DNA of 62,636 bases, the filler included, from Collodictyon triciliatum (Eukaryota), in the NCBI GenBank assembly GCA_043381765.1. It is 5 parts of 5 records of this genome, joined end to end, with 100 filler letters (N's around TTAATTAATTAA, not from the genome) between each part and the next. Parts side by side here need not be neighbours in the genome. Positions count along the whole stretch, not along the records: positions 18,137 to 36,117 come from JBHJMP010001410.1; positions 36,218 to 51,730 come from JBHJMP010001411.1; positions 51,831 to 59,526 come from JBHJMP010001477.1; positions 59,627 to 62,636 come from JBHJMP010001546.1; 1 more part is not named here. One strand, written 5' to 3'. Position numbers and translations under genes: made by a program. The notes beneath the pieces are model-generated. The model saw only the letters and a program-made list of their open reading frames with translations, was not told the DNA's origin and ran no database searches. Position 1 is the stretch's first letter, and each line of letters starts with the position of its first letter. Below are positions 1 through 62,636 of the stretch, piece after piece.

Positions 1-186
1 AGAAAAAGAAGAAAAAGAAGAAGAAAAAGAAGAAGAAAAAGAAGAAGAAAAAGAAGAAAAAAAAGAAAAAGAAGAAGAAAAAGAAAAAAAGAAGAAAAAA
101 AAAGAAGAAAAAGAAAAAGAAGAAAAAGAAGAAGAAAAAGAAGAAGAAAAAGAAGAAGAAAAAGAAGAAGAAAAAGAAGAAAAGAA
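1..186. repeat. (GAA/GAAAAA)n purine tract, intronic
   Basis: Direct reading. Confidence 0.9.
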
Positions 187-213
187 TGTAAATATCCACA
201 CTGACAAACATAC

Positions 214-8522: not shown

Positions 8523-8611
<89 letters not shown>

Positions 8612-10945: not shown

Positions 10946-11042
<97 letters not shown>

Positions 11043-14000: not shown

Positions 14001-17000
14001 AGAGGGAATATAAAATACTTGTTGAACTCTTTTAATTGACGGAAAATGAGCGTCATTTTCTGCATCTCATCGTAAAGAGCCTTGTACTGCTCCAAGAAAT
14101 GTGCACCGAAAGTCACTTCGATCTGGGTGTGGAACAAGCGCACGTCCTCTAATAACGAGAAAGAACCTGATTTTTCCTCCACGTGTATTTTGAATGTTGT
14201 TAAGAGAGATTCCAGGTTCTGATAAACATGTGAGAGCCTCATAAGGGACGATGATTTTTCTTTTAGCCTCAAGAAGAGGCTATGCCAATGAGTGTGATGT
14301 TTGAGTAATACAGGGAATTCTCGTGGAATTTTAAGGGCTTGCACCAATTCAAACATCAAGTAATCGATAACAACGTTGGATACATCATCAAACTATATAT
14401 TTCAAGCAAAATGATTAAAGAAGAGTATAGGAATTTTTTTAAAATAAATAAATAAATAATTGACTCATTCATGATTGTAGTCAGAAAATGTATATTAAAG
14501 AAGAACCTGGAGCAAAAACATTATGGAATCAAATTTGGGTTCTGAGACAAATATCGAACTCAGTCCTTTCAATAGAAGTAATGTAAGTGAATCTGGAAGA
14601 GCTTTAAATTCAGCCGTAGAATCATATAAGGCTTTGATTGTCTTGTCCAAACGATTGCTCTGGACATACGAAACCACAGTGTTTTCATATATTTGAATTG
14701 CTGCTTCATTTTTAAAGATTAAGTAGAAATGACCCAATGACTGCACAAATTCTCTAAAGTTGGTAAATATTGTATCGTTAGCCTTCAGAGACCTGAGCAA
14801 AGAATCTTCTGTTAATTTCAAATGACCCTTAGACATGCCTCTCTTGAACAGAATTTGGTACCAATCCAGAACTCTTGGCCAGTAACAGACGTCAGGATTG
14901 GTTAATAGGGCTCTTATTATACGGTCCTGGATTAAGTCTGGATTGCTCGATAATATGTCAAAGGTTCTTAATAAGTAGATAGATGAGCTTAGCAATGATT
15001 CAAGAATGAGCTGACAAGCATCAGTGGTGGTCTGGGTCCATCGATTCCCTCTTAAGAGGGTTACGGCCATATCCAGGTTGGCAACTTCAGGTTGTGTAAG
15101 AAGGCTATGAGCGAATGAAGCTACCAAACTATCTCTCATGCGAAAGAGGACAACTCCAACAGAGGCTGTTGGATCTTGATTGGAACTAGACTCTTCCCTT
15201 TTCGATAGATTCACAACTTCATGAATTGCTCTTATTTGATCTGCCACAAGAAAAAAAACATTTTTTATTTACTTCCAACTTTTTTTTTTAAAAAAAAAAT
15301 ATTGTAGGAATAAAAAAAAAAAAGAAGTGATCTATCGGACAATATAGATGAACGATAGAGCGGACAAGAAAAACAAATATAAGGAAAGGGAAATGAAGAA
15401 ATAACTACCCTCGAACGACAGAAATTTGGACATGTACGTGACCAGTGCAAAAGGATCGTGAATTTTTTGTTGACTTCCTTGTTTTTTTATGACCTCACAA
15501 AACTTTGAGATACTGTATTTAGCAGTTTGCGAAGAACGGATTGCAGAAAAGCCTTCGTAAGAACACTCAATCTTCTCTATCTGGTCCATTTTGAAATCGT
15601 TGATAGAGTTGAAGACATTGTTAAAAGCGCATATGGGGGCAACAAAATCATCATTCGTTCTATTGATTATATCTGTAAGTATGTAAAAAAGGGATGTCAT
15701 GATAACACGAAGGGGGACCATAACTCCTCTTCTAGATTTTAATGTGCTTAGAAGAGCATCTGTGTATGGCTCAAAAACAACTTTTGCCGGATGGAACGTT
15801 GATGAAAGAGGGAAAACTGATTTGTTTCCAAAATAGCGTAAGTTATGAACTACCCAGAGCCAGTGGGAAATAGCACTAAAAAAATTGACAGAGTTATACG
15901 AGTCCATCAATATGTTAAGGGACTGGCCCATAGTCAATGGAGTAGGGAGGAGATTGTACTTTTTCAGGCTGTCAAATAGTGAAACGTAATCAGCATAATC
16001 CAGTTGGTGCCTCTTAGTTTCTTGCTCCAAATCGGCGGTGGAAATTCCTTCTGGAAATAAAATGGTCAGATATCTACGGAAGCATGCCGTAATTCCCATT
16101 GTGAGTCCATGTCTTGATTCTGCAAGGAATGCTTCCGGAACGGGCTGGTTGGCCACGATGTGCATGGTACAAAAGCAAGCATGCTCGTCAATATCAATAA
16201 AGAAAGTTTGGGCATTTCGCACTGATCCATTCTCATCCAGCAGAACAACACTGATGGCCTGTGCGATCTCAGTCTCCCATGGGTGGATTTGGATATCTGC
16301 AACGAATACGTTGGCAAAGTCGTCAAGCCTTTCGCTCAGTTTCAAAACTTGATAGGCGTTGGACTGTCCGTAGCTGTAAAATACTCCTACTCTTGGAGTA
16401 AAGCCCTCGATATTCGTGACATAGGTCCACACTGAAATTTTCTTTCTTTTTTCTTGCCTCAAATCCGCCTGGTGCAGTTGCATATGATGCCTGGCCCCCT
16501 TGATAGTGGCGTCTAATTTCTCGAGAGTGGACTCTGATTGAGACGTGCGAAATTCTGTCGAGATGTGACTAACATCCAGAGGGCGGAGTTTTTTAGAATC
16601 CATTCCTACCTGCTTGCTTTTAAACAATCCCGCCAAAGGGTTCTTGGTGTCTGGTTTCTTTTTCTGGTCACTCTCCTTTGCAGCCTTCAGGATGTTCAAG
16701 TATTTGGCAATTTCAGGATACTTAAACCCAGAGTCAGTGTTAGCTCTTCCAAACCCTCTCATAAGATGACCTGGAGTATCATCGTTGGGTATCTGAGAGA
16801 GTTGTTCATAGCTCAAAACAGGAAGGAATTTGCTACTCTTTTCTGAGCTAGATGCATCCCCTGCCATTAAATGCTCTTGCTCCTGGAGCATCTTAGCAAG
16901 CTCTGCATCGTTGCTTGTATCCAGCAAAACGGTCACGCCTAGAGGCGAAGATGAGGAGGGAGAAGGGGCAGAAGCAGAAGCAAATGCAGACGCAGACGAT

Positions 17001-17893
17001 TCTGGGTCGGGCTTTGGGATGCTGCCCTGAACCTTAGGCTGTTGTGGAAGAACGATGCCAACGAGCTCCTCGGGCGGGGTGCTGTTCTTGCGCTGCAGTA
17101 TAACAGGACGAGGCTTCGAAGCCAGTGGTGGCTCATCTCCGGCCTTAATGGCGTTGTCGATGGAAGCCTGCCGCTGAAGCAGAGTGGATGCAGTCCTCGT
17201 AGGACTAGGTGTGTGGGTTGAGGCAGATGCACGGGGGCCATCTGAAGGCAATACGGAAGCCTGGGAAGTATAGGCAAGGCTTCGTGGATGGTCGGCTGGT
17301 GGCGAGGCTGAGGCTGAGACAAATGTAGAAGGAGAAGTAGAAGTAGCAGACGTTCTGACCGAGTCGCCCAGACCTGATGATGTCTGCCGCAATGCTGGAA
17401 GGAGTGAGCGCGGCTGTCCGAAGCCCGGGCTGGCTCTCATGGACTGGGCAGGCAATGTGCTGACCACGCCCTTTGGTGACGCACTGGGCGATGGTTGGAT
17501 GGTCTCGGCTATCCGGTGCTGGGCTGCTTCGGAGAGACCAAGGTCTTTGAGCAGGCCTTGCTGCGTGCCAAAAGGCAAAGCGTTGCGGATGCCCTTGGCC
17601 AAGAGTATGGCGGTCTCGTCGCCGAGTCCTCTACTTGCCCAGAAGACGGCCCCTTCGAGGAAGTTTCGCCCACGGGCCTGATTTGTCCGGGTCATATCCT
17701 GGAGGATCGATTCGCAGTCCTTGGCTTGCAGAGTGCCGAGAGACTCGGCTGTCCTGAAGTTGCGCGAGTGCAGAGCATTCAGAAGGAAGGAGACAGACTG
17801 GGACTCAAGCACCTTCTCCAGCGTCAAGCTGCCCGGTGGTGGTTCCGGTGAGCTGGGCGCCTTTCCTGACGGCCTTAAGTCCTCTTGCGACAT
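214..17893 (-). CDS. RNF213: RNF213/mysterin-like giant AAA+ ATPase / RZ-finger E3 ligase, multi-exon, 3' end runs off the window start
   Basis: Hand-spliced ORFs give the RNF213 motif series in order: SPGYGKT (~11400), IM|GETGCGKT (9548-9632), YLFFDEIN, IIGACNPYR, LVYLVYPIPPSM..VWDFG, VSLRDV, LIVGKPGSSKS, VLLDEVGLAE.SPDLPLKVLH, VGISNW.LDAAKANR, YGLRDFY, NIYESLYDVLNQHY, PPPFLNRFEK, then an RZ finger (2779-2921) and YSYGRG (~590). GT-AG junctions keep frame where checked. The last exon seen is 214-299 with no stop. Confidence 0.93.
1646..1707. repeat. (CAAA)n microsatellite, intronic
   Basis: Direct reading. Confidence 0.95.
2779..2921 (-). other. Exon encoding the RZ-type zinc finger of the RNF213-like protein
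   Basis: AG/GT-bounded 143-nt exon missed by the ORF track. Spliced translation MPDDSRKKNALAWINAQYGVYVSPKGCLYNVWNCTWPMEVVRCQECGNEDTGGTNHNP aligns with the recalled RNF213 sequence MPED...WYTCPNGHPCSVGECGRPMEQSICIDCHAPIGGIDHKP. Confidence 0.85.
6594..6645. repeat. (AAAAAG)n next to a 5' splice site
   Basis: Direct reading. Confidence 0.9.
8523..8721. repeat. poly(A) plus (AAAAATC)n, intronic
   Basis: Direct reading. Confidence 0.95.
10526..10548 (+). mobile_element. 3'-end copy of the same element in an RNF213 intron
   Basis: TCTTTGAATCGAATAAAGGAAA followed by (TAAAATAA)n. A TSD cannot be resolved in the low-complexity flanks. Confidence 0.6.
10946..11039. repeat. (AAT)n microsatellite, intronic
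   Basis: Direct reading. Confidence 0.95.
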
Positions 17894-17965
17894 TCGCGTT
17901 TGCTCGGGTTTGTCTATTGGAGAAGCTGCGTTAGGTCAGGATCCGGTGAGCAGTACTTGCAGTGA

Positions 17966-18004
<39 letters not shown>

Positions 18005-18036
18005 CCTTTTAAAATTTTTTTTTTTTTTTTTGGGGG

Positions 18037-18136: not shown

Positions 18137-18247
18137 ATGGTAATGGTAATGGTAATGGTAATGGTAATGGTAATGGTAATGGTAATGGTAATGGTAATGG
18201 TAATGGTAATGGTAATGGTAATGGTAATGGTAATGGTAATGGTAATG
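18137..18247. repeat. (ATGGTA)n at a contig end
   Basis: Direct reading. Confidence 0.95.
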
Positions 18248-18392
18248 ATAAAAATAATCAAAAACAAAAAATAGGGAAAGGGAAAGGAGGAAAGGGTTGC
18301 ATATCACAAAGATAGGATGTCATATTCTTTTTATGTAAAATTTTCTTTTTACAAACTGTGTTTATTAAAACATAAGGGGAAAATATATGTAC

Positions 18393-19709
18393 CGGTCATT
18401 TTGGTCTCGACCACAGTGACTAGCGTATGCTAATGTATTAGAACCACATCCATCACTCCCATAGGTGAAAAACATAATTATGTCTGCATTTGGAATCCCT
18501 GTGCCTGCTGAAATAGGAGTACATGCTGTTGCAGATGTACAAAGCTGGACATTTTCATTAATTTAGCCATGATAGACAGGCGATTTGTGTAATATCAAGA
18601 TGAAGAGGTGCTCTTCATGGAGATGGAAATCTGAAAAAACTGCACCGCGCCAGCCCCAAGGTATTGCTCTGGGACCGTGGTCGAGCCGCATGTGGATGTA
18701 CCATATTGGGCACAGGCTCCATTGTTGTATGCGCTTATGCAGTTTCTTGGAAGGCTTAAGAATTTAGTTAAAGATTATTCAATTATTGATTTAAACTACC
18801 TAAGAAAAAAGGTATTTTCAAGCTAAATATAAGAAAACACTATTTATAATATTTTCTTGTTCGGAGTATTTTGCTGCGTAGATAAACCAATTATGAAAAG
18901 TGAAACATGTTCTTTATCATTGTAGTATGATTTAGGGTGGAGAGTGAGTGATTAGAATACTAGTGTTGTAGCTGCTTTTAATGACTTACAGAAGATTTCC
19001 TTGAACTGAGTTAACATAGAGCATACTAGAGAGTGAATCGATGGCCATGGGCAGAATGGTATTTGTAAAAAGAGACCTTCATATGGCGCCCACAGAAGTA
19101 TAATATCAGTAAATATATATAATGTCGGATTTTTTTATTAAACGAAACCCCCTCCCCTGGCATAAAGATATGTTTGGCAGACTATGTGGCTTTGAAAATA
19201 AGACGACCTTATTTCATCCATTGATAAAAAGATCATACAAAATGCGATAAACACCTGTTTGCATCATCCATGCCGCTGAGGTTAATACTGGTGTATATGC
19301 GAAGATTTCCCTTAGTTCCACGACGACCAAGTGCTCCGTATGTTTGGTTGTATCGACCAAATGACTGGCGGCCTCCCGTTCGTGCCATCACCTCGTCATG
19401 GTCGCATCTGCCCATGATTTCGCCCTCCTGTGTTTCGAGAAGTATGTAATGGTGAAAGGCTGAGCTCAAGACTCACACATATACGGTGAACACATCACGA
19501 ATAGGTGGGAAAAGATCCTCTTTATTTTCATTCTATTTTTTTGTTTTTTTATAAAAAAAAAAAAAACTAGACAAGATTCTTTGTGCAAGAGGCATCAAGA
19601 GTTTACAATATCTCCCCAATAAACCAACCTGAACAAAGCAAAGACACAAGGGCAAGGTCACGAGGAAGACAGCAGCAATTAATGCCGAGAAGCTTGAGCC
19701 TCGGGTCAT
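18393..19709 (-). CDS. Leishmanolysin/GP63-like metallopeptidase (peptidase M8), 5' part, truncated by the contig end before HEXXH
   Basis: Spliced: signal peptide MTRGSSFSALIAAVFLVTLPLCLC; propeptide cysteine switch RCDHD; ILPMAIDSLSSMLYV; CGSTTVPEQYL; GTGIPNADIIMFFT; TLAYASHCGRDQNDR (M8 'AYA..C..D...RP' motif). Confidence 0.85.
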
Positions 19710-20917
19710 CTCCAACCTAGCGATATTTGGTGATTTAAGTAAAAGAGCTGAATCGGACTACCTTTACGCCAGTTTAGCCTTAATGACGGCAGCATTCTTT
19801 TCACAAGATTTTTTTTTTATTCTTCCTTTCAATTTTGTGCAGGATGGTGAAGATGTTGGCATTCTTTTCACAAGATGAGTGATCCAAAGGCACACAGAGA
19901 GCAGCAACACAAGGCAGTGGGGAAAGAGAGCAAGTAAATAAATAAATGTTTTTTCCACATGATTTAATACCCGCAGGTGGCTGAACCTATTTCCTTTGTG
20001 AGGTAACTGTGTTTGGTTATTGTATCAATCGCACCATACACACACACACACACACACACACAGATAAACTCAAAAGAAAAAGGGTCGTGATTATGGCAGG
20101 AGGGAAAATGACCGCGTATTATTTTAACACAGCCAGCAAATGCTCCGCTGTTTCTGTCTGGCCGTATACACCTTCCCGCCCGCACGAACATCCTCTCCGT
20201 TTGCCCATGTGTTTGTCTGAAATCCATTCTTCGCTTGGGCCATGCAGGGACACAACCCCGAGCAGGATGGGTTGTGTGTCGCAGGAAGTGTGACTCAGTA
20301 TGTTTTGTGGGTTCCAGTCCACTTTTCAAGGGCGCAACACACTGTGACTCTGGGTTGTTGTTAATGCCGGTCGATGGACGGGCTTGTGCTCTCACGGCAA
20401 CAAAGTTTCAAATGTTTCGGTTGCACATGCGACTCTTTCTTTTTCTTCTTTTTTTTTTCATTTTTTTTTAGGTTAAGGTTTTTCTTTTCTCATCCGCAGT
20501 CGGGTTGGGTTTTTGCGGCTCTCAGAAAACGGCAACGCGCTATTACGGTATGTGCAAGCAGTTTATATGTCTGCGCAGGGATCGGGTCGTGAGGAACGGA
20601 AAAGATAGGAAGTGCGAGAAGGCGAATTGGACAGGCAAAGCTGAGGAGCCCAATCTATTCACAGGGGGCGATGCAGAGTATTGACAAGAGGGCACACAGG
20701 CCAGGATAAAGGCTGTTGATAATGGAGCAAAAGCAAGGGAATTGAAGCAGGGGAGATGCAGCCGGAGCTCAAGCTGCCGAGAGAATAGAGAATAGAGAAT
20801 AGAGGAGGAAGGAGAGAAGGATGCGTGTGCCAAGCACGAATCAGCAAGTGCAGAGAAGCGAGCCGAATGTTGAAAGGCTGGCGGCAGACTCTGCCCATCC
20901 AGAAGGCAGCTGAGCGC

Positions 20918-22800
20918 TTATTCTTTGCTGCGGCGGCGTTTGGAGGGCGTTGTGTTGTGGGCCGAGGCAGCGCGCGGCGTTTCTGAATCGATGCCTTTGG
21001 GCAAAAGGCCACGGATAAGCCGCTCCATCTCCTGGCTGCTTGCTGCTGTGGAGAGTCCGTCCCGCACACTCAGCAGGGCCCGGCGCAGCTGCTCGCATCG
21101 GCTGTGAAGGCGGTCGCATTCTCCTTGGTAGAAGCTAAGCTGCTCCCGCTTCCTCTGTCTCGACAGCTGGGCCGACTGCCGATTCTTTATCATCCGACGC
21201 ACTCGACGCCACAGGCGCCGCGTTTCTGTGTCCATGGCTTTCTCGTTGGGCCGAGAATTTAGAAGCTCCACCGTGACCTCCTTTCGCTCAATCAATCCTT
21301 TCAGATACTCTGCGTCCAGCTTGAGTGCAGACTCTCCAGTTGCTCGCCCTCCTTTGGCACTGTCTTTCCTTGGATTGCCTGCTGTTTGGTTGGAGGAGTA
21401 CATGGAAAGCTTGCGTTTCCCTTGTTGTGTCTTTGGGAGATATGGATGGGCACTGTGTTCAGACTGGAAGGAGCTAACCTCATCATTCTTGGACTCTAAG
21501 TCTTCCTCTGGCTCGCTATCGGTGCTACTGATACATCCAAGCTCAGAGCTAGAAGCATCACTGCTATTTTCAGAGCCAGTGAAGTCGCTGGATTCAGATT
21601 CTTTGTTGAAATTAGAGATTATATCGGCATCGCAGAGGGGCCTGATGTGTTGGTTGTTGGATTGGTTCCATCCGGATGCGGTGAGGGCGATAGCTCCCTT
21701 GCTGCCACCTGACGAAGGTGAGTGATCAATTCGTATGGACGTTAGGCTCTTGCCTCCTCGTCCATTCTTTGTCGTTGGTGTGCGTGTCTCATTTTGCTTA
21801 TAGTCTGATATAGTCTCTTCTGTCGCGGCAATTGGATATTTTCTAGGTCTTCCGACCGGGCGACCGGTGCTTCCGCCTCGTCCTCTACCTCGTCCTCTTC
21901 CTCCTCGTGTAGCACCTCGTGTAATAGGGCTGATGCTGTCCAGTCCCTCACTCACTTCAGATTTCTGGGAAGGAAGTGATAGTCTCCCATATTTGTGATT
22001 TCCCCCTTCCTCATTCTCTTCTTCAGGATGCACATTCGCTTCTTGAATGTCTGTAATCGTCACTGAATCAGAATCTTCTTCGGCTTTACAATCTTCGCGA
22101 GCTGCAAAATCCACCTCTGGTGCAGAGCGGAAATTTCGAGTGACCTCCTCGAGAGCCCGGTTGAATTCCGAATCACTTACTTCGTGTAAATATTCCAAGG
22201 GTAGAGGTGTCTCTTTATCATTCTTGGGGACACTAAATACATGGGGTGGGGTGGAGAATATTGTTGTCGGGCAATACTGTGGTGTTATGAGTCCATCTTC
22301 AATACTGGCAGTCTCCGGCTTCACCGGAACAAGAGGAGAAAATATATCGGCATCCATCTCCACCTCATTCTGATATTTCAGGTCTTCGAGGGTCTCGTAA
22401 TCTGATGTAAGGTGGGGTGAGTGGAAATCCAAGTGCCATATGGGTATACGTAAGTAAGAGTTTTGAGTAGGGGTGAAGTTAAATACTGCATACCTTTTGT
22501 GTGGGGAGAGAATAGGCTTTTTCCTTGGCCAAACAAGGGGGACGGCATATGGCCCAGCGGTAGAGTGCTCTGTGGCTGTCTGAGTGACTGGGATATGTTG
22601 TAGGGAGAATCCTCTGCTGTGGACGAAAGCATTCTTGCATCCAAACGAAGATTTCTAATTGCGTCGAATCTTGGTCGACATGCATAGAATTCTGGATTCA
22701 TGTTTGAGGGCTCGTCCCAGGAATGCATAGGGACGCCCAGACTTTGTGATGACTGCATATCACCTAGCTGGAGGTCTAAATTATCGACGTTGTCTTCCAT
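20918..22800 (-). CDS. bZIP transcription factor with AT-hook and RG-rich segment; 2 exons (intron 22402-22493)
   Basis: Basic region RRMIKNRQSAQLSRQRKR followed by a short zipper; AT-hook RPVGRPRKY. A GTATGC...CATCAG intron joins ORF 22378-22800 to ORF 20918-22432 in frame. A further upstream exon is possible. Confidence 0.88.
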
Positions 22801-24044
22801 CGTGTCTTTGTGAGTGTTCTTGTCGGGAATCGGTTCTGCGTCGAAGTACTCTTTGAAAAAAAAGAAAGGCCCTATGTTTGTGAAAGAAGTGAATCATAGG
22901 CTGGCAGAGGGAAAGAGACCTGCTTCTCTATCTGTTACATCCTCAAGAATAAATTCAAAAAAAAATGAAATGCGGGAAGGATTTTTTTTGTAGGGAAAAA
23001 ATGATGGTTTGACTCATGTAGACTATCATTCCCCGGGCCCAACAATATTAGAATGCGGGAAAAGTTATCAAGCCAACACAGGCGGGCTATGCTGAAGCAC
23101 ACTCCCTCTTCCGGTGCTAAACAAAGCTCCCCTACTCTCTGTCGGCTACCGACCAAGTGAAAAAAAGATCCGATGTTTCTAGATCTCTCTGGTGGCCGGT
23201 TGTCTGTGCTCTTGTCCTTGGATGCTTCTATCGGCTTGGGTTAGACCGAGCGCAGGATCTAGATCGAAATGCGCTTCGAAAACATTGGCTTGTCCTTTGA
23301 GAACTGAGCCGCCGGCTGTTTTTTTATAGATCGCATGGCTTCGGTTATGCTTGGATTCTTCCTCGAACAATCTATACCCACATTTGTAATTTGATCTATT
23401 TTTATTGCCAACTTCGGTCCATTCTCTGAATATGACGCACTTTTCCGCGAAAGGCCCGCGGTCAACCTTTAAGTTAGTTGGTGTCGAGTTGCTAAATTTG
23501 TCCTGTGTTTCTTATTTTCAAAGGAAAACACCCTTTTTAGTTCTCCTTAGAAAGGTATGTGCTTAAAAATTATATTTATAGATTTTCGTGGCTGTTTAGA
23601 TTAGCCACAAGTGCAAAATCGGTGTGTGTGGTGCTTGACATTCTTATATAATCAATTTGTATGTATGAAGATATTTTCAATTATCGAAAGATGACTAATG
23701 CTCCATTATTGGCTCTTTATAGATATTATATATTAAATTCCATAAATGAATATTTAGCAAGATTACATTCACTTTAAAGTAGATATAGATTCACATCCGA
23801 GAATGGGGTGCCCTTCAGCGTATTTATTCAGCGCTCCCTTACCCGTGCCGTTTCTGGCGGCGTGGCCTTGGGGAAATTGGGCCCACAGATTCCAAGCAGC
23901 CCCACAAGTAGAATCAGTCCAGGCGTGCTGTTGATGTGTAGATCATTACGGAACGATGGAGAAACCCTCTTAACTATCTCTTACATTGTGCCAACTTTAA
24001 AGGCGCGGTGCTTAAAATCAAAAAGACAAGGAAAAGAAGCTACG

Positions 24045-25874
24045 ATGTCCTTTTTGCATCGTCTCGCACGGACGGTTAGATCTGGTGAGTCCCGCTACCT
24101 TTGCAAAGGGTGCCACCCTAACGCTTATCGACTTTTCAATATAAATGAATTCTTTCCTGGCTGCCCTATGAATATCTTTGCAAAACAATTATATATCAGT
24201 TGGAGTTGCCATGACCTCGCTGCACTTTGAATCGAATAAAGGAAACAATTATATATCATTTGAAGTGATATGCTTTTCAACAACATAACTGCTTCCTTGG
24301 AATCCTGGGCGTCCTTTCCAAGCCAGTCTTCATCAAGGAGACACACACGCCGCAGAAGGTCTTTCCATTTTCGCATTTTCCGGAGGACAAGGAAAAGTGG
24401 TTTGTTGCAAACGATAAAGGCCTTGGAGGTTTGTATTTTGCTAGTTTACATCTCTTGAAGACACTGAGCGGCACAGAAAAAGCAAGAAAATAAATAATGA
24501 ACAGGTACAAAACAAAGACAATAAAATAAAAGAAATAGAGAATTCATCAATTAGATGGGTCCAGGGCAGTGGTATGTTTAGATGGTTTATTCGGTTTTGA
24601 GTGTAATGCTCACAAAATCAAATTCTAGGCACTTCAACAGGTATGATTGAAGAGGGAGAGGACAATCAGGGTAAGCATTTGAAATATCCTTTGATATCGA
24701 GGCAATTGGGCTGGATTACATAAATCCTTTCCATTTCCTTCTTTATTCGATATGAAGTACACGAGGCGTCCATTCTTCTTCAAATATTCATCAAAATCAC
24801 AATAGCATGGTTGAATTATATCACTTGAGTCTCTTTGACGTTGTTATAAATTCACTTACATAGGTATTGTGTTCAGCGGAAAACTTGCAATGGCTCTTCC
24901 TGACAAGAGAATGAAAACGGGCTATGTTGCGCTGCGACTTCGGGTTTGTGACAAGTAGAAGGCCATCATCAGACAATTATTTCTTCTATTGATGCCACTC
25001 TCAAGGAGGATATACGTTTGGTACTTGTGCCACTGCTATTGTGTATATGTTTAAGTGGTGTATTATCGAAACATTGTACTTTTCCCCAGAAAAACTCATG
25101 GTACATCTCTAGGAGTTTGGTGCGCCAATTCCCTTATCATTTTATGATAAGATATCCATCAATTTGAAAGGGGTTTGTATTTTTTTTTGAATTAGGATCA
25201 AACAAACTCAACCAGATTCGGTTTTTTTTTTTAATTCTTGAAAGATATCTGGCTATTGTAATTCAACTCCTACTAATCAACCATTGACCACATCAGGACG
25301 ATAGGCGGTACGTCATCACAATGCGCCCAGTTATTGCCGAAAGCCACGACCAGATATTCCAGGCACCCATCATGATTCGAAATCCTGGGCAATGGGAAAC
25401 CATCGATGTGAGATACGATAGTACTATTTGAGATACAGCCAGCGCTATCATTTCAACCTTTTGGAGTTTGCGTTAAAAACACTCTGTATTTGCAATTTTG
25501 CTCTCTTTCGCCGTTATTGCGTGAATCACCAGATGATGGACTACATCGACAGTTGGTGCGATGTCATTTTATTTATCTATTTACTCAGGGTTTCTGATTA
25601 GATTCCGCTGGAAACCTTACAACTAACGTGGCGCGGAAAGCCTGTTCTTCGTCGTTTCCCGATTCGAGGGTCTTCCGTGGAATCCTTTGGGATTACAATT
25701 ATGGACTCCAACGTAAGTCCGTGGGTTTTATGACGGTCTTTTCCTGCAGCCAAATTCCGCCTGACTGATGATTTGCTTAAGGAGGACCCGTTCAGATTGG
25801 AGATCAAGTCCATCAACTTCAGGCTGGATGGAAGTGTGTGGGTTCCCGAGGCTCCAAAGAAGGCATATTTTTAA
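24045..25874 (+). CDS. NDUFAF1: Complex I assembly factor NDUFAF1/CIA30, 8 short exons
   Basis: Hand-spliced: MSFLHRLARTVRS (presequence-like) | ..KWFVANDKGLG | GTSTG.. | GIVFSGKLAMALP..TGYVALR | ..ISINLKG | DDRRYVITM..PGQWETID | IPLETLQLTWRG..SFGITIMD | EDPFRLEIKSI..AYF*. These match the CIA30 motifs W..sD..GG.S, F.G.L, GDGR.Y, PG.WET, T..G and F.LEI..I. Confidence 0.9.
24183..24258 (+). mobile_element. 44-bp retro-insertion (24199-24242) with a perfect 16-bp TSD, in NDUFAF1 intron 1
   Basis: AAACAATTATATATCA at 24183-24198 and 24243-24258 flanks GTTGGAGTTGCCATGACCTCGCTGCACTTTGAATCGAATAAAGG. Confidence 0.8.
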
Positions 25875-26234
25875 GAGTAGAAGTCCGGGTGCCCTCATCT
25901 CTGCTACTTTATCTCTTTACTACTACACTTCGGATTTGTCTGCGCCTGATAAACTGGCTCTGCGAAAAGCCCCAATCACAAGTCGGGCTGCTTCTGTTTT
26001 GCTTCTCCCGGCTGGCTGTGAAGCAGGCGAGTAAGTGGCACCCTTTGTACGATGGTGCTATCAAGATAATCTGCTCGGCATCATGGCATACTCAAAAAAA
26101 AATAATTAATGATTGGCAGCGAGCGATACGCATCGCGGGGACGGCTTCTAGGGACACTACGCGGTGAGATTTATGTGTTTTTCTTTCGGGATATTGGTTT
26201 CCTGTCCGTCGTTTTCCTGAGGGAAAGGACACAC

Positions 26235-55001: not shown

Positions 55002-56905
55002 TAATGATTTTTTTTTATCCTTTTGACAGACTGCTTGTGAAACCATTGAAAACAACAGAAATTTTTCATGATAAATCTGTATTTTTTTATATCCCCAAAC
55101 ATATGAGTCCTTTGATACAGGGATGGTATGAATTTGGTTGGCTTTAATGGTTCCTTCAGTTTATTTTCATCCAATTTCAATAATTGTAGACTGCTGTAGC
55201 CACTGCACAACCAAATCGCTTTCATGCTGAATAACTTAATATTGATGTATATAATAATTATATTCATGATTGTGCCTACGTTGACGAGAAAGATAATCAT
55301 TCGTTTAAACCATCCAGGAGCCAGTTGGAGGCCTTTGAATGTCCAATATGACCGAAAGTAGACGAAGTTGTTTGCTTATCATGTTGTGTGGCTCACGGTT
55401 TATTACGTAACCTTAAATGAAAGATTATATTAAACAAATGCTTTTATTTGACCTCATTTTCTTAACACGATGGAAATGCATGATTCTTAAATTTATCAAC
55501 TATTTATGTTCCAACGCGAATGTGTCTAATATCAGAATAGCTCAATACATCACATTTTTAATTGTTTATTTTGAATCTATTTAATCGTAAACTGTTTTAT
55601 ACAAAAAGAGGTTTTTATAAATCACTCCATAAGAATATCGAGATTTGTCATTCATTTTATCTTGATTTTGCAACAAGAAGCTTGTTTAATGATGAATTAG
55701 AAGTAACGTATGAATGAACAATGATAGTCATACTTCGGTTTGTAAGAACGAAACAGCTGATGAGAGAAAATGACAACTTAATATCAATGCATCAGTTCAC
55801 CAGCCGACGGTGATAAATGATCATGTTTTGAATCATTTCCATCTGAAACAACGACATGTATATAAATAAATCATCTTTGTGTACCATGTTTCGCTAAGTT
55901 TATCTCCTGCTCTGAATCCTGCGAAGGTCATGGTAAAGGGACATGCGACAAAACAACCAAGGGAAAGGGAACTGTCCGATCTGCTGCTACTACCGAGGGG
56001 GGAGCGGTGGTAGGATGGACGGCTCCTAGTTTTTCCGGTGTTATGGAGAGATGGTCTAGGGAACGATTCGTGGGGTGTGGGGATGAGTTGTCGTGTGAGA
56101 AATAGTAAGTCTCTTTGTTGTCCATAAATTTCATAAAAATAATAATAATAAAAAAAATAATTTCAACATATTTGATGTGTTAAAATTGAACATGACTGAG
56201 CAGGTATGCAATCACAAAACAATATTATATATTTGTATGTTGTGTTGCATTCATGTAGTATTTTACGATTTCTATTTTATTCAATTAATGAATATGTCAA
56301 TGAAGTTAAAAATTACATGTGTTTCTTCAGTGCAATTATATTTTACTTAACAAACCAATCAAAACTTAATAAAGCACCAGCGATGCCCATGCCTGCAGAC
56401 TTCAGAACTTATCTTTTCTAATTTATTAAAAACATTATGTGAATGATGAATTTTAATTTTGCCATCATTCTAATTTGCCAGCTGTGTCTATTTATTATGA
56501 AACTGAAAGGAGTCCTTGCCGAGCTGATGGCCACGTTTACCACAAAAGGAGTATCTTATTCTGTGTATATTCCATTACTATAATATCCTTTATACTCAAG
56601 AACAACTATCTGCTCGGAAATATCCTTGCCTCAGTTCGCTGCCTGTGATGCCACCACACCTCCCCCAACTCGGCTGGGAACGCACACTTGACAACAGCTC
56701 ATCCTCGCCTACATAAATCGTTGCCTCGCTCTGGCTGCCTTTTTGTTGGTGTGTGGTAAGGAGCGTGAAGTGTTTTATCCGAATAAATATGTGCATGTAT
56801 GTGGTGTTCGCTGAAGCTCATTTATTTATTCTTTTTCTTTTTTCTTTTCTTGTCATATCTTTTTATTCTACATATACCTAGAATAAAAAGATGTCATCCT
56901 GGTGT

Positions 56906-56963
56906 AGATTTAACAAATCCTCTTTGAATCGAATAAAGGGAAAAAAAAAGATTTGACAAATCC
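56906..56963 (+). mobile_element. 28-bp retro-insertion of the same family with an A-tail and a 15-bp TSD
   Basis: AGATTTAACAAATCC (56906-56920) and AGATTTGACAAATCC (56949-56963) flank TCTTTGAATCGAATAAAGGG plus A8. Confidence 0.78.
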
Positions 56964-58893
56964 AAAATCACCCCTTCCTCCCCAGGTAAGTACAGAAAAG
57001 GAAATAGAAATGAAAATATCAGTATAGAATCTATATATGGATACCCTCAAAGCACCTTACTATAATTTCTTAATCTGGAATAACCAAGATCGGTTTTCTG
57101 ACTATTCGTACTCTTTCAAATCATAAACCCTTTCGACTTGTTGACGTTTTGTCGTGGCAGCTGTCCTTCGCCCAGCCATTCATCACCCACTCTCCCCCTC
57201 ATTGATTTCGTTTTATTCAATGACACTCAACACTGGCTGCTAATCGACTTGTTTGTGGATTTATAGGTATTCTTGACAACCACGAGGCATATTTTCAGCC
57301 GATCACCAGTCGATGCTTTCACACGCTCGATCCAAGGTTCATTCCCCCGTCTTATTCCCACAATCAACCGAGAACTTAATAAGAGTATCTTTGATAGAAA
57401 AGTAGTGAAGGTTTTCTGAATCAATATTAATTATTTCTCTTTTTATTTTCTTACGAAGATCCACATACACTTTGACAATCTTGCATGCCATAACTATTTT
57501 TTTTTTATTTTCTCTTTTTCTTTCATTTTTTTACTTGGACGGAATAACGACATGGAGATTGAAAGCGCCGACTGGAAGCAAACACACGACCAAGCACAAG
57601 AATAAAGCCCTCCGCTCGACCAAAGCTTCCCAGTCACAGTTATTCGCTGATCAATGAGCGCCCGGAAGCAGAACCTGTACGACCCAGCTGCCACGTCCAC
57701 CTTCGAGGTAAACACAAATGCCCAGAACTACCACGCCCATATACAGTCAAGGAAAGAATGAGCCCAAGTCCTGAAAGATCTTGAGTGCCGCAATGAGAAG
57801 ACTATCAACCAGCTATTCGATCAACTTCAAAAATGCACAGCAGACTATTCCAAAAGAAAAAATCGCAGAGACGAGAGTTAAATAATGCTTAAACATTCTT
57901 ATTCGCCCATACCTAGAGAGAACAGCTTTTTGCTACCCATTATCTGGGGCATTCCTCCTGGCTTCATTAAGGGTGACATTGAAGGTCCGTAAAAAAACAA
58001 CAAACAATATTTTCATCTTCCATAGTATGCTTCAAAGGTTAAAACGTGCTTTGATCAATGAAGCGCTGAACAAGAACCCCACATCAAAACTACCCTAATT
58101 AAAAAAAAAAAAGAATTAGCTTCTATGCCACGTTCTCTCTTATCCATAATTCGTGCCAGAACTCAAGGAAAAAGCCAAAAGAAAAATCATGGTAAACACC
58201 ACCGCAAATACTAACAGACCGAGCAGTCAAGTATAGAAAGAGAGTAATAAAATTTTAAAAAATATAATTCCTAACGAGAACATTTTTTTACTAACGATTT
58301 GTATGCATACGTAAGGCACATATGGAAAACATGCAGATGTTTAATGGGAGGAAAACATCTTAAGCCTGGTAAACTTAACGGGTGATGGTTCGGTGTGTTT
58401 ATTTTCAATCTAACGTAAAATCTTCACGATGAAAACCTCATGGTATGATTAGCGGAGAGTTTTACACGACTTTCGATATTACAATTTATTTATTTCGCAT
58501 TCTGTAGCAACATACTAATGATTACGTATAGTTTGAGACATTTGCACAATTTTGAATAGATTTAAGGGATTGTATAAATATCGACCAGGAAGAATATCGA
58601 TTCAGCGCGCAGAGATTTGCAGACATCACATTTCTTATATTTACGAAACATTTTAACATTAACTGAATGTTTATGGCTTGTGATGCATAAGCAACCCATA
58701 TCAATATTATTTATAAATCAAGAAGCAATTGAGAAAAATAAATGTAATTCGTCTCATGTATTGATATAATTTTATTCACGAATGATTTATTTCATAATAA
58801 ATAAAAATGAAAATATTCAGAGGTGATGATATCGAGCTTTGAGCAGTAGTACAATATAACCTTGCTAGCCTATTGAAACTATCCAAAAAGCAT

Positions 58894-58997
58894 TCAATAT
58901 GAATCAATATGAATCAATATGAATCAATATGAATCAATATGAATCAATATGAATCAATATGAATCAATATGAATCAATATGAATCAATATGAATCAA
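58894..58997. repeat. (GAATCAATAT)n 10-bp minisatellite upstream of the CH-domain gene
   Basis: About 10 perfect units. Confidence 0.95.
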
Positions 58998-59132
58998 ACA
59001 ACAGTCATTCATGAAAAACGAATAGCTTAATTTGTATTAGACTTGTTTGATAGTTCTCAAATATTATAACCGATGTAAACGATGTTTTTTTTATTCATCC
59101 AACGCAAATAAATGAATAGGAAGATTCAAAAC

Positions 59133-59417
59133 ATGTCTGCAACCGAAACAAGCACCGAGGCCAACGTCAGCCTTGTCACCATTGACGAAGTATGTCACAA
59201 ATACATACATTTTCGTCAATAAACATTTCATATATTAGGGAGGGTTGGTTACTTACGCCAATAACTGAGCACAGGCTGTCCTCGAATGGGTGAACCATCA
59301 CCTGGCAAAAATCGAGCTCAAGGCGAAGAACATAAGCGATGACTTTATGGACGGGTTCTTTTTGGCCATGCTGATTGAGGCGATCACCGAAAATTCCTTG
59401 GGAAGCTACCATTCCCG
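59133..59417 (+). CDS. Calponin-homology (CH) domain protein, first two exons (truncated by the contig end)
   Basis: MSATETSTEANVSLVTIDE | AVLEWVNHHLAKIELKAKNISDDFMDGFFLAMLIEAIT matches the CH motif W.N..L....L..DF.DG..L..LIE. Confidence 0.8.
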
Positions 59418-59526
59418 CTTGTTTGCGTATGATTTATTTATGATGTTCAATTTTCTTGATTTTTTTTTTTTACGGACTGGTATTTCATCCCTTTTTTTTT
59501 TTTTTTTTTTTGGTGCCCAAGTTTTT

Positions 59527-59625
59527 NNNNNNNNNNNNNNNNNNNNNNNNNNNNNNNNNNNNNNNNNNNNTTAATTAATTAANNNNNNNNNNNNNNNNNN
59601 NNNNNNNNNNNNNNNNNNNNNNNNN
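59527..59625. other. Artificial contig linker
   Basis: N run, TTAATTAATTAA, N run. Confidence 0.97.
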
Positions 59626-59769
59626 NTTTTTTTTTTTTTTTTTTTTTTTTTTTGTTGGGTGGGGGGGGGGGGGGGGGGGGGGGGGGTTTGCTTTTTTAGG
59701 CTTAAAAACTGTTTAATACGTTGTGCGTGTTCATCACTTATACTCCAAAAGGAACTTATCAGATATAAG

Positions 59770-62459
59770 TACACATCAAATACGACTGAGAGCTCTCTTG
59801 AAGGCCTCAGTGCTTCTGGTATTTCAGGATAAGGTATAGGCTCAACCGCACTTGATGGATAAACCTTAAGAAATTTGCCTCTGATTTCCTCTGCTGTCCG
59901 TGTTGGATGTTGAGCTAATTATGGTTGTGTCATACTGTTTGAATAGCCATTCCTCAGCTTACAATTGGCAAACATAAACAAAACTTTACATCAAGCGTAT
60001 TTCAGTAATTAGATATCGGCAACGTGTTGCCAAAACAAATTCATGTTTGGTACTTGTACCAGCTCAAAAAAAATTACATTCACTTAGCACGGGTTTGGGT
60101 GAGGTTGAGGGACTCTGGAAATCGTGGGACAACCACAACAACATGTCGATAAATTTGTCAAACCCTCCTATGGACTTAAACCGCTCTATACTTTCCTTCG
60201 AGGACCTGAAGAGAATGTTATTTGTAGAAGAATATAGGTAAGAAGTTTGTCACAAAGGATGACCAATTTTTTTATGGAAGAATATGTCAAACTGTTGCTA
60301 ATTTTAAATTTTATAACATATATATCAATGGAGTGGAAAGATATTCTCACAGCAGTATGCAAAGGTATTGCAATGTGATAAGCTGCAAATCATATTGAAT
60401 TTGCAAAAGTTGCGACTCTCTGATTTTCGAATTTAAGGTATTAATTAGTAACATATAACTGTTCGAATATATGTCAGGTAAATCAGCTGGGGGTGGGGGA
60501 TTTGGTTGGGGTGAATCATTAAGGAATTTGAAATATATGTAAGCATACTTTCGGAATGAAGGATGAGGCCATCCTAGGATGTCTTGAAAAAGCTCTAGAT
60601 ATTTTGACTGATATGATAGCATATGGTGAACCTCCCTGTTGTCGACTATTTTAGTATAAAAAAGTATTGTCTTTTTCGAACAGTGAAATGTGGGGATATG
60701 CTGGCACCGACAATCCAGTTTTCCAAGGTCATCTGCCAAACATACAGCAATAACAACAGAGAAAGATGAGCACATATCTAAATATTATTACTTCAATCCA
60801 GTTGTGTATGATCCTATTAATGCGACTATCAGTATCTGAATTTGCGTTGTATTCTGAGTGATTGGAAAGAATCCGTTCGTCTGGTCTGATGGCTTTCTCA
60901 GATAATTGAGATGGTCTGTTGTTTTACCAAATTAGTTAATTGGTGATGTTGATTCATCTTAGTGATTTAGATGTTGTTGAAAGGTTCATGGATTTGATAT
61001 ACAAATAATGCACGCACGCTCACAAAAAAAAATAATTGTTTCCTTTATTCGATTCAATGTGCAGCGAGGTTATGCCCTCACAAAAAAAAAATAATAAAGA
61101 TAAAAAAATAGAAAGTCAAAAATAAAAAGTCAAGTATACCGATAAATGATAATCACCTAGTAAGCTTTCAATGAATAGATTTCCAGAGTAACGTTCTGAT
61201 TTCGATTCCGGGACAAGTCCCCAATCATTATCATAAGAAGAAGGGTCAAATTTATGGAAGAAAACGGGCTCGTTCTAATAAAACGTAGTAATGGGGGAAG
61301 CCCCTTTCAGTTATTTTTTGGAATCACGGCAGTATTTCGAAAGTAAATTTTAGAAAGAAGTCCTTACATATAATGCAGAAAGTAGATAAAATTTTCTCCA
61401 TCCATGAAGGTTCGGTGTAAGATTTGATATTGCCAAGACAGATAGATTTGCCATTGCGTTGACGCATTGAATAAGATATGGTGATGGTGATATGGTGGAT
61501 TTTGATAACGATAGGGTTTTGATGCATTTGATCGCCTTTTGAAGACAAAGAGGATATGCAAAGAGAAAAGAATGCCAAATTAAAAAAATTGCATTCTTAT
61601 TTAAGTCTTTTGTTGCCTATCATATAATAAATTTGGTTCTTTTTGTTTGATTCAAGTTTGCATAATAATAAAATTTGTCCAAATGACAGGATTGCTATTT
61701 GTTGGTTCGTTTTTAGATAAAATAAAAGGCAAAGAAATTTTGTCACCAAGTTATGCAAGGCCATAAGATGTTCTGACATCCGGTGGTGGCAGAGAACAAC
61801 CTTATTATCATGCTTCCTTGAAATTATTTCCAAAATTTGAACAGCATTTAGCATCGTTTTCATTTGGAATATATCTTGCTGTGATATTTCTAGTAGACTC
61901 TCAGCTGACCTCGACAGAATACTTCCAGCGTCTGAACAGGGCAAAAATTGTCAGGCGTTATACAGCATTCACTCATTAATGTGAAAGAGGAGGCAGTGGC
62001 GAAAAAAAGAGACATTTATAGGTATTAGAAAAATGTCCCACATTTTTTGAATAATTCCAGGCAGAACCGCATGAGTGGGAAACAAATTTCTAATGGGTGG
62101 TATGCTACTGATTCTTGTATGGGATTGGTCTGATTGTACTCGAACTTATAGATATATATCTCAGAGAACTCTCGAAATGCGGTCAGTTTCTGTTTGGATG
62201 AGATAGAATAATTTTTTGTTTTATTTTAGGTATTAAGATCTTAATTGTTGCAAAATAACCAAATTACAGGAGTTCCTTGTATTTCTTTTTCTTAAAAACC
62301 AAAAAATTCACGTGTTTACCTGTGGATTTGAATTGTCACATCTCGTAATGATTCATTCTATAAAAGAAAAACTGCATTTTGCTACTCACTTGTTCCCAAT
62401 CTTTAGACTCTTGGAATATCTTAAAGTATCGAAGAGGCTCCTGGAAAATGTCGGCTGGT
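59770..62459 (-). CDS. Internal exons of a large, probably alpha-helical protein; tentatively BEACH/WDFY3-LvsA-like N-terminal region
   Basis: A series of AG/GT-bounded open exons: PADIFQEPLRYFKIFQESKDWEQ; KLTAFREFSEIYIY..; LNAVQILEIISRKHDNK; ELFQDILGWP; LQLITLQYLCILL; ERFKSIGGFDKFIDMLLWL. Coding status is likely; the family call is only a resemblance. Confidence 0.45.
61019..61095 (-). mobile_element. 40-bp retro-insertion of the same family with an 18/19-bp TSD
   Basis: CTCAC(A)9-10TAAT at 61019-61036 and 61077-61095 flanks a sequence reading GGCATAACCTCGCTGCACATTGAATCGAATAAAGGAAACA on the minus strand. Confidence 0.8.
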
Positions 62460-62516
62460 CTGCAAAACAATAATTAGTTATTGATATTCAAATGTATGTA
62501 TTTTTATGTAGCTAAG

Positions 62517-62636
62517 CATACATACATACATACATACATACATACATACATACATACATACATACATACATACATACATACATACATACATACATACATA
62601 CATACATACATACATACATACATACATACATACATA
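62517..62636. repeat. (CATA)n at the window end
   Basis: Direct reading. Confidence 0.95.

Follow-up and report, generated by a model that had tools for sequence, protein, structure and literature searches.

What leaves one short sequence, always with the same 3' end, at four unrelated sites in 62 kb of the Collodictyon triciliatum genome? The window, ie the whole stretch of 62,636 nucleotides analysed, consists of five contigs joined by N linkers (1-18036, 18137-36117, 36218-51730, 51831-59526 and 59627-62636). The initial annotation had read the repeats as very short retro-insertions of an unrecognised LINE/SINE. They are examined here as a family of four copies within this one 62 kb window.

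The four inserts and their flanks

The exact 16-mer core TTGAATCGAATAAAGG occurs four times, on both strands and on four of the five contigs (1, 2, 4 and 5), as had been claimed; the count expected from composition is 7e-5. When up to three mismatches are allowed there are six matches, compared with a shuffle mean of 1.48, and none of 100 shuffles reaches six. The core is the sole non-simple 16-mer present at four dispersed sites in the window, and the 16-mers present at three sites are its shifted versions. The 3-mismatch matches at 54258 and 58552 are at chance level. A candidate fifth copy at 24741-24766 (-) was not accepted (36 of 100 shuffles reach its score; profile E 0.44). The density of four copies in 62,236 bases is about one per 15.6 kb, replacing an earlier figure of one per 12-15 kb, and its margin is wide, which from Poisson limits we take to be roughly one per 6-57 kb. 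The core 16-mer is absent from the literature searched, and as it stands the family is a previously unreported retroelement family. Its features are as follows.

10529-10544 (+), 24227-24242 (+), 56924-56939 (+), 61042-61057 (-): core TTGAATCGAATAAAGG, four exact matches
10501-10518 / 10589-10606 (+): copy 1, possible duplication, 17/18, in simple A/T/C sequence, unproven
10526-10544 (+): copy 1, 19 bp body, then A-rich simple sequence as its tail
24183-24198 (+): copy 2, left target-site duplication (TSD), 16 bp, exact
24199-24242 (+): copy 2, insert of 44 bp, the longest copy, intergenic
24243-24258 (+): copy 2, right TSD
56906-56920 (+): copy 3, left TSD, 14/15 match
56921-56948 (+): copy 3, insert of 28 bp, ie a 19 bp body, G and an A8 tail
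56949-56963 (+): copy 3, right TSD, 15 bp
61077-61095 (-): copy 4, TSD on the 5' flank of the element, 19 bp
61037-61076 (-): copy 4, insert of 40 bp, ie a 35 bp body and AAACA
61019-61036 (-): copy 4, TSD on the 3' flank of the element, 18 bp

The reported co-terminal 3' ends, AATAAA and 5' truncation are present in all four copies. The bodies are 44, 35, 19 and 18-19 bases long and have three distinct 5' ends, those of copies 1 and 3 starting at a nearly identical base. The tail is A8 in one copy (copy 3, as previously noted), AAACA in two (overlapping the target in copy 2) and A-rich simple sequence in one, with pure poly(A) in just one of the four. The two longest copies, 2 and 4, had been described as sharing their sequence; they are similar, with three differences across the last 35 body bases. 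The first 5-10 bases of the right duplication of copy 2 are identical to the sequence 3' of the core in copy 4, and the 10-mer following the core in these two copies has no other site in the window (three occurrences).

Locus-specific direct repeats of 15-19 bp surround three of the four copies, in agreement with the initial annotation: 16 bases exact, 14/15, and 18/19 with one indel within a homopolymer. Copy 1 is ambiguous, since it lies in simple sequence; taking its 17/18 repeat as a duplication would make the insert 70 bp long, its A-rich tail having expanded, which is unproven. The identical search at 3955 random sites of the window gave a non-simple repeat of at least 14 matched bases at 11 sites and of at least 18 at 6. 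The copy 4 repeat falls just below the complexity cut-off (0.53), and the fair comparison for it is 72 of 3955 random sites. The duplications in three of four copies exceed the random-site rate. In a scan of AATAAA sites, from which the complexity filter dropped copy 4, a flanking repeat was present at 5 of 171 sites (four loci) compared with 2 of 591 random sites.

The settings of the copies vary. Copy 1 is antisense to an RNF213-like gene and lies within an inferred intron (about 10333-10637), whose limits were taken from GT/AG, the exons being taken from ORFs; a downstream exon matches RNF213 with E 1.5e-62. Copy 2 is intergenic and copy 4 lies in a putative intron. Copy 3 is about 25 bases upstream of a GTAAGT donor-like site.

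That the copies are not retro-insertions at all, being instead a dispersed regulatory motif, a DNA-transposon footprint or a patch captured in double-strand-break repair, is very improbable. Staggered-break repair can also give short duplications, and the donor-like site beside copy 3 would suit a regulatory motif. Against this, no constant position is found among the four copies, splice-site-locked or otherwise, and no terminal inverted repeats are visible. The truncation is one-sided with a fixed AATAAA end, the duplications reach 15-19 bp, and one template end is found at four unrelated sites.

A LINE family in the window and its 49 bp stub

The same window holds the remains of a LINE family and one further insert.

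52982-53440 (+): decayed, 5'-truncated LINE, C-terminus of ORF2 and 3' end, about 460 bp
54500-54763 (-): second, older remnant of the same zf-RVT LINE family, 3' limit approximate
19792-19876 (-): independent stub, a 49 bp insert (19810-19858) between exact 18 bp repeats (19792-19809 / 19859-19876)

The remnant at 52982-53440 contains frameshifts and stops and has no clear duplication. Six of its seven matches among 1.84 billion representative proteins align with it, and in three of these six relatives (P0003, P0005 and P0007) zf-RVT (PF13966) scores above its cut-off. P0008, one of the seven, is an unrelated repeat endonuclease and was excluded from the alignments. The Atlas matches of P0005 are zf-RVT clusters in 27 of 30 cases, with a recognition score under the tool's threshold, and are a lead only. 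There was no match for this LINE in the PDB, and word-indexed protein searches with the remnant, a host Tom40-like exon and the LINE alignment gave none. A full-length relative was not found by alignment search, which by the tool's own note is weak evidence. In this family the ORF2 stop is followed by seven bases and AATAAA.

The stub ends in AATAAA with an A9 tail and aligns with the LINE remnant at its 3' end (53400-53440), 35 of 42 positions being identical (blastn, E 8.2e-7). Because this TSD-flanked insert of 49 bp matches a LINE 3' end, a LINE in this genome leaves stubs of less than 50 bp. The four clean duplications, ie those of three copies and of this stub, all start with A, three of them after a pyrimidine, and none has TT/AAAA, the L1-type nick consensus on the top strand; the starts resemble that nick loosely. 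The duplication lengths in the four-copy family (15, 16 and 18/19 bp, n = 3) are at or slightly above the L1-clade peak of 13-15 bp given in PMC4245944. In PMC2104539 LINE insertions are described as truncated at the 5' end, A-rich at their ends and flanked by TSDs of 10-20 bp.

On balance, each of the four inserts is likely to be the very 3' end of a young non-LTR retrotransposon (LINE), made by target-primed reverse transcription. The earlier reading of LINE-type retro-insertion is supported by the anatomy, the LINE remnants and the 49 bp stub. Its APE assignment was not, there being no EN or RT domain in the 204 intergenic ORFs of the window scanned against Pfam. In such an event the element protein would bind the RNA at its observed 3' end, AATAAA-GG and an A-rich tail. 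The target would be nicked on both strands 15-19 bases apart, as the duplications of three copies suggest, and the nicked 3' end would prime cDNA synthesis on the RNA tail. Pairing of 5-10 bases between tail and target may sometimes aid priming, as the junction identity at copy 2 suggests. Synthesis would be halted or cut off after about 20-45 bases, which is consistent with the 5' variation, and host repair would then join the 5' end and fill in the duplication. The stubs are most likely dead and without function.

The parent of the four-copy family

The four-copy family is not detectably homologous to the zf-RVT LINE family and, judged by sequence, does not appear to come from it. Profile searches in both directions gave no cross-match at E up to 50, and comparison with the 3' regions of the two remnants gave p values of 0.05-0.94. 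The resemblance to the stub at 19810-19858 is weak and scoring-dependent, both for copy 4 (16-82 of 17,539 windows and 2-4 of 174 AATAAA-ending windows) and for copy 2 (220-874 and 6-17, respectively). A motif shared by the copies' end and the remnant at 53389-53403 is equalled by 134 of 24,661 windows; it was rejected as a terminal signal because it is internal to the element and lost in the second remnant. No parent element ending in the stub sequence is present within the window. The best reading is that the family belongs to a second LINE, younger than the zf-RVT LINE and probably L1-like.

Copy 2 reads nine open codons, TGA, four bases and AATAAA. This stop-spacer-AATAAA layout is like that of the zf-RVT LINE, and the stubs may represent the final codons of an ORF2 that has hardly any 3' UTR. 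Read in this proposed frame, copies 2 and 4 differ non-synonymously, and the encoded peptide is the C-terminal end of none of the LINE-like database proteins.

The same machinery could have copied another template in trans, either a non-autonomous RNA (a SINE or a tiny Maque-like element) or the 3' terminus of an abundant mRNA of the cell, an alternative we regard as doubtful. It would account for the lack of homology between the stubs and the LINE of the window; AATAAA with a variable A-rich tail suits any polyadenylated RNA, and L1-clade elements are described as able to act on unrelated poly(A) RNAs (PMC3747384). Copies 1 and 3 also begin at almost one base. The 5' ends nevertheless vary between copies, four insertions of one cellular mRNA tip within 62 kb would be extremely frequent, and the parallel stub at 19810-19858 is a LINE tip. 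The copies contain no tRNA-, 5S- or 7SL-derived head or Pol III promoter, although 5' truncation would remove any head. The window lacks tRNA genes, and none of the copies overlaps an Rfam match, the 12 weak Rfam matches all lying outside them. No stable 3' stem-loop was found in the copies (z +0.4 to +1.5), and an origin from a structured or small RNA was rejected. A prokaryotic or phage origin was likewise rejected (no matches in two GTDB genome scans; phages at only E 0.3).

Shortness of the inserts and comparison with known systems

The initial annotation had offered very early abortion of reverse transcription or a very small RNA as the reason for the shortness. That choice is under-determined, because simple repeats lie at the contig ends and long inserts may be lost to selection. 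Of the two options a tiny fixed template is less likely, given the variable 5' ends and a parallel stub that demonstrably represents the tip of a long element. The extreme shortness may be real or may be a product of short-read assembly and selection. In the latter case the lengths would have an ordinary spread, long young copies breaking or collapsing in short-read assembly and being purged from gene-dense DNA, which we consider quite possible, if somewhat short of an even chance. It is compatible with the explanation by LINE 3' tips. The contigs are 3-18 kb long and nearly all end in microsatellites or homopolymers, so long young copies may be absent from the assembly. Longer inserts do reach this genome, as is shown by the older and diverged LINE remnants (about 260-460 bp). 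Under a simple exponential model, the probability that all four copies are below 50 bp is 0.03-0.07 (means of 100-900 bp) if repeats are assembled only to 100 bp, but 0.009 (100 bp mean) or 0.0009 (300 bp mean) if they are assembled to 300 bp. Two further points tell against an artefact, ie a search of the window for TSD-flanked inserts of 71-700 bp with a terminal AATAAA gave none, and the size class is identical in two families.

Alternatively, the host might keep LINE insertions to about the length of a single reverse-transcriptase footprint. Two or more unrelated families would now leave almost only stubs of 20-50 bases, because the RNA is destroyed or sliced to a protected 3' tip or cDNA synthesis is cut off at once. 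This idea is speculative and on present evidence unlikely. It counts five of five young duplication-bearing inserts as stubs, the duplication of copy 1 being unproven. If it were true, thousands of stubs missed by repeat finders would be expected genome-wide, and older insertions would be longer, dating the gain of the defence. If lengths truly peak at 20-45 bases in several families, this organism would lend itself naturally as a model for the open question of what causes 5' truncation, in which host end-joining factors are implicated (PMC2666801).

The stubs share with truncated copies of L1-clade LINEs, for example of the Mucor Grem-LINE1 type (APE, RT and zf-RVT, as described in 10.1101/706580), a common 3' end, AATAAA, an A-rich tail, a variable 5' end and TSDs in the 13-20 bp range, and zf-RVT LINE remnants occur in the same window. 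They differ in that the bodies are only 19-44 bp, pure poly(A) is present in one of four, and EN/RT was not found in the window. Partial RTE elements of moths are described in PMC2887409 as abundant TSD-flanked stubs of the last RT ORF codons and a short 3' UTR, whose matched lengths go as low as 39-60 bases; full-length parents are few, and the stubs can readily be confused with SINEs. The moth elements differ from the present stubs in belonging to the RTE clade and in having microsatellite tails, eg (TGA)n, and most of the listed examples are hundreds of bases long. Maque of Anopheles gambiae, reportedly described by Tu in 2001, is said to be an extremely short interspersed family thought to be mobilised by non-LTR machinery. 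It is about 60 bp long, with TSDs, an A-rich CAA-like end and a defined length and 5' boundary, whereas the 5' ends of the stubs vary and the copies are shorter. It is termed a SINE in PMC2278371. The closest parallel in the window is its zf-RVT LINE, which agrees in stub size, TSD length, AATAAA end and stop-spacer-AATAAA layout but shows at best a weak collinear resemblance in sequence.

The process that forms the stubs is well known, and only their extreme shortness might be unusual. No LINE family with nearly all copies below 50 bp was found in the literature searched, most subscription papers being beyond its reach. The AATAAA-plus-duplication scan finds insertions of less than 50 bp and can tie them to a LINE, and the stubs would serve as presence/absence markers.

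Four copies of a shared 3' sequence

The exact 16-mer at the core of the short-insert family occurs four times in the window, on contigs 1, 2, 4 and 5, three times on the (+) strand and once on the (-) strand, against an expected count of 7e-5. No other non-simple 16-mer was found at four dispersed sites anywhere in the window. All copies are co-terminal after AATAAA-GG, and their bodies, measured up to the shared 3' end without the tail, are 44, 35, 19 and 18-19 bases long. The initial annotation had described one 3' sequence on four contigs and both strands, with a common 3' end and a variable 5' end, and on these points it holds.

Copies of the core sequence
10526-10544 (+): copy 1, in A/T/C simple sequence, with a 17/18 repeat 70 bp apart
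24199-24242 (+): copy 2, insert 44 bp, direct repeats 16 bp, exact
56921-56948 (+): copy 3, insert 28 bp, direct repeats 15 bp, one mismatch
61037-61076 (-): copy 4, insert 40 bp, direct repeats 18/19 bp, one homopolymer indel

The three flanking duplications reported earlier (16, 15 and 18/19 bp) were confirmed and are rarer at random sites, where non-simple repeats of at least 14 matches were seen at 11/3955 and of at least 18 matches at 6/3955. When simple repeats were included, which is the fair class for copy 4, the figure was 72/3955. The 17/18 repeat at copy 1 may mark a duplication that encloses an expanded tail, and is indistinguishable from background. The settings of the copies differ: copy 1 is antisense within an inferred intron, copy 2 is intergenic, copy 3 immediately precedes a donor-like site, and copy 4 falls in a putative intron. 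Since these positions are mutually unrelated, the core is not locked to splice sites, an arrangement that the initial annotation had named as evidence against insertion.

A possible fifth, decayed copy at 24741-24766 (-), 500 bp from copy 2, was not significant (36/100 shuffles, E 0.44) and was rejected; it has a loose flanking repeat. The core was not mentioned in the literature searched and had no match in GTDB genomes. We conclude that the copies are a real, previously unreported family of a known kind.

Insertion mechanism and insert length

LINE insertions are described as having common 3' ends, A-rich tails, duplications of 10-20 bp and 5' ends truncated when reverse transcription aborts (PMC2104539; PMC3956500), and in the L1 clade the commonest duplication length is 13-15 bp (PMC4245944). 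The proposed LINE-type retro-insertion is borne out on all three testable features, namely the shared 3' end, the A-rich tail and the duplications; the copies are accordingly assigned to the class inserted by target-primed reverse transcription (TPRT), with the L1 clade as a candidate only. TPRT ending after 20-45 bases is the best-supported account, the copies working like 5'-truncated LINE copies anywhere. Copies 2 and 4 share the ten bases that follow the core, a 10-mer found at no other place in the window. Because all ten are target-derived in copy 2, and the last five in copy 4, the RNA tail of the element may pair with target DNA at priming; the five-base part, noticed after the fact, would arise by chance with a probability of about 0.007 in AT-rich DNA (123/17,466). 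No stem-loop supporting stringent 3' recognition was found in the copies, and no function is indicated for them.

Maque is reportedly an extremely short published family. Under a simple exponential model of insert size in which repeats of up to 300 bp can be assembled, the probability that four of four bodies fall below 50 bp is 0.009 for a mean of 100 bp and 0.0009 for a mean of 300 bp; with an assembly limit of 100 bp it is 0.03-0.07. Since selection against long inserts lies outside this model and the window also holds older remnants, 260-460 bp long, a skew toward very short copies is no more than suggested. Inserts can be shortened by host end-joining factors (PMC2666801). A host-imposed cut-off of insertion at one enzyme footprint we regard as unlikely.

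A 49 bp stub, LINE remnants and the question of a parent

A search, blind to sequence, for short inserts flanked by direct repeats gave 14 candidates in the window. Four had repeats of at least 15 bp: copies 2, 3 and 4, and one new insert, which the initial annotation does not list.

LINE-derived features
19810-19858 (-), with repeats 19792-19876: new stub of the zf-RVT LINE family, 49 bp, AATAAA and A tail, exact 18 bp repeats
52982-53440 (+): LINE remnant 1, a decayed 3' piece, from a family with zf-RVT-bearing relatives
about 54500-54763 (-): LINE remnant 2, older, revealed by the relatives' proteins over 54763-54564

At 35/42 bases the stub aligns with the 3' end of the first remnant, 53400-53440 (E 8.2e-7; the runner-up had E 0.06). 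This match shows that a LINE in this genome has left a duplication-flanked stub of less than 50 bp. Flanking repeats of at least 14 matches were present at 5/171 AATAAA sites versus 2/591 random sites. The five sites are four loci (copy 1 twice, copies 2 and 3, and the stub), copy 4 being removed from this count by the complexity filter, and their inserts were all 28-70 bp in a search allowing up to 700 bp.

The stretch at about 52960-53410, which by its motif resembles the C-terminus of a LINE ORF2, was translated through with X at breaks and searched against 1.84 billion representatives. Six of the seven matches align with the remnant (23-75% identity), and three of these six have a zf-RVT domain that passes the Pfam cut-off and lies directly upstream of the shared region. 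Atlas gives a lead in the same direction, with zf-RVT in 27/30 matches at a low recognition score. This domain accompanies APE and RT in L1-clade elements, eg Mucor Grem-LINE1 (10.1101/706580). Neither an EN nor an RT domain was found among 204 intergenic ORFs of the window (90/94 and 114/114 of those listed), and no full-length relative was found.

On sequence grounds the zf-RVT LINE was rejected as the parent family, as the profiles miss in both directions at E up to 50: the LINE-tail profile finds 0/4 copies, and the four-copy profile finds neither stub nor remnant. Comparison of the copies with the remnants' 3' regions gave p = 0.05-0.94. Weak collinear likenesses to the stub were noticed after the fact; that of copy 4 is equalled by 16-82/17,539 windows and 2-4/174 AATAAA-ending windows, and that of copy 2 by 220-874/17,539 and 6-17/174.

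The ORF2 frame of the second remnant continues into the region covered by the stub, and there the stub reads as far as a TGA, with seven bases between it and AATAAA. In the longest copy, nine open codons are followed by TGA, four bases and AATAAA. This similar layout of stop, short spacer and AATAAA suggests that the copies may be the tip of a second ORF2. In the proposed frame, copies 2 and 4 differ in ways that are not synonymous, which counts against that reading, and no protein with such an end was found among the LINE-like proteins fetched. In moths, RTE elements are the source of abundant stubs that consist of C-terminal codons and a short UTR, with matches down to 39-60 bases (PMC2887409). 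The copies resemble these in being very short and, if their putative codons are genuine, in make-up.

Gene content of the window

The contigs, of 18.0, 18.0, 15.5, 7.7 and 3.0 kb with N linkers between them, are eukaryotic, with spliceosomal-type introns. Besides the features listed, there are genes for a bZIP factor, an SGT1/ECD protein and a eukaryotic porin-family protein.

Genes and fragments
about 1200-17935 (-): large, multi-exon RNF213-like gene (AAA region versus solved RNF213, E 1.5e-62)
25602-25730 (+): CIA30 fragment, weak match (E 0.003)
about 26200-29900: 2-oxoacid dehydrogenase E2 gene, adjoining the transporter pair
31626-32691 (-): formate/nitrite transporter gene, first of a tandem pair (Pfam PF01226)
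34123-35079 (-): formate/nitrite transporter gene, second of the pair (visible similarity)
59269-59520 (+): calponin-homology fragment (E 1.3e-5)
61600-61950 (-): TANC1-like winged-helix fragment, weak match (E 0.005)

The RNF213-like gene sits in a non-animal-looking genome, and an intron inferred for it contains copy 1. Islands richer in GC, with disrupted reading frames, interrupt the gene-poor DNA at 57540-58000 (+), 19320-19500 (+), 55930-56100 and 56620-56760; they gave no match in a Pfam search and may be further mobile elements in decay. A microsatellite or a homopolymer stands at nearly all contig ends, which suggests an assembly of short-read type. Microsatellites of 4-10 bp are very numerous in introns and contig ends throughout, the contigs breaking at such repeats, and T-run/A-run palindromes are present within introns.
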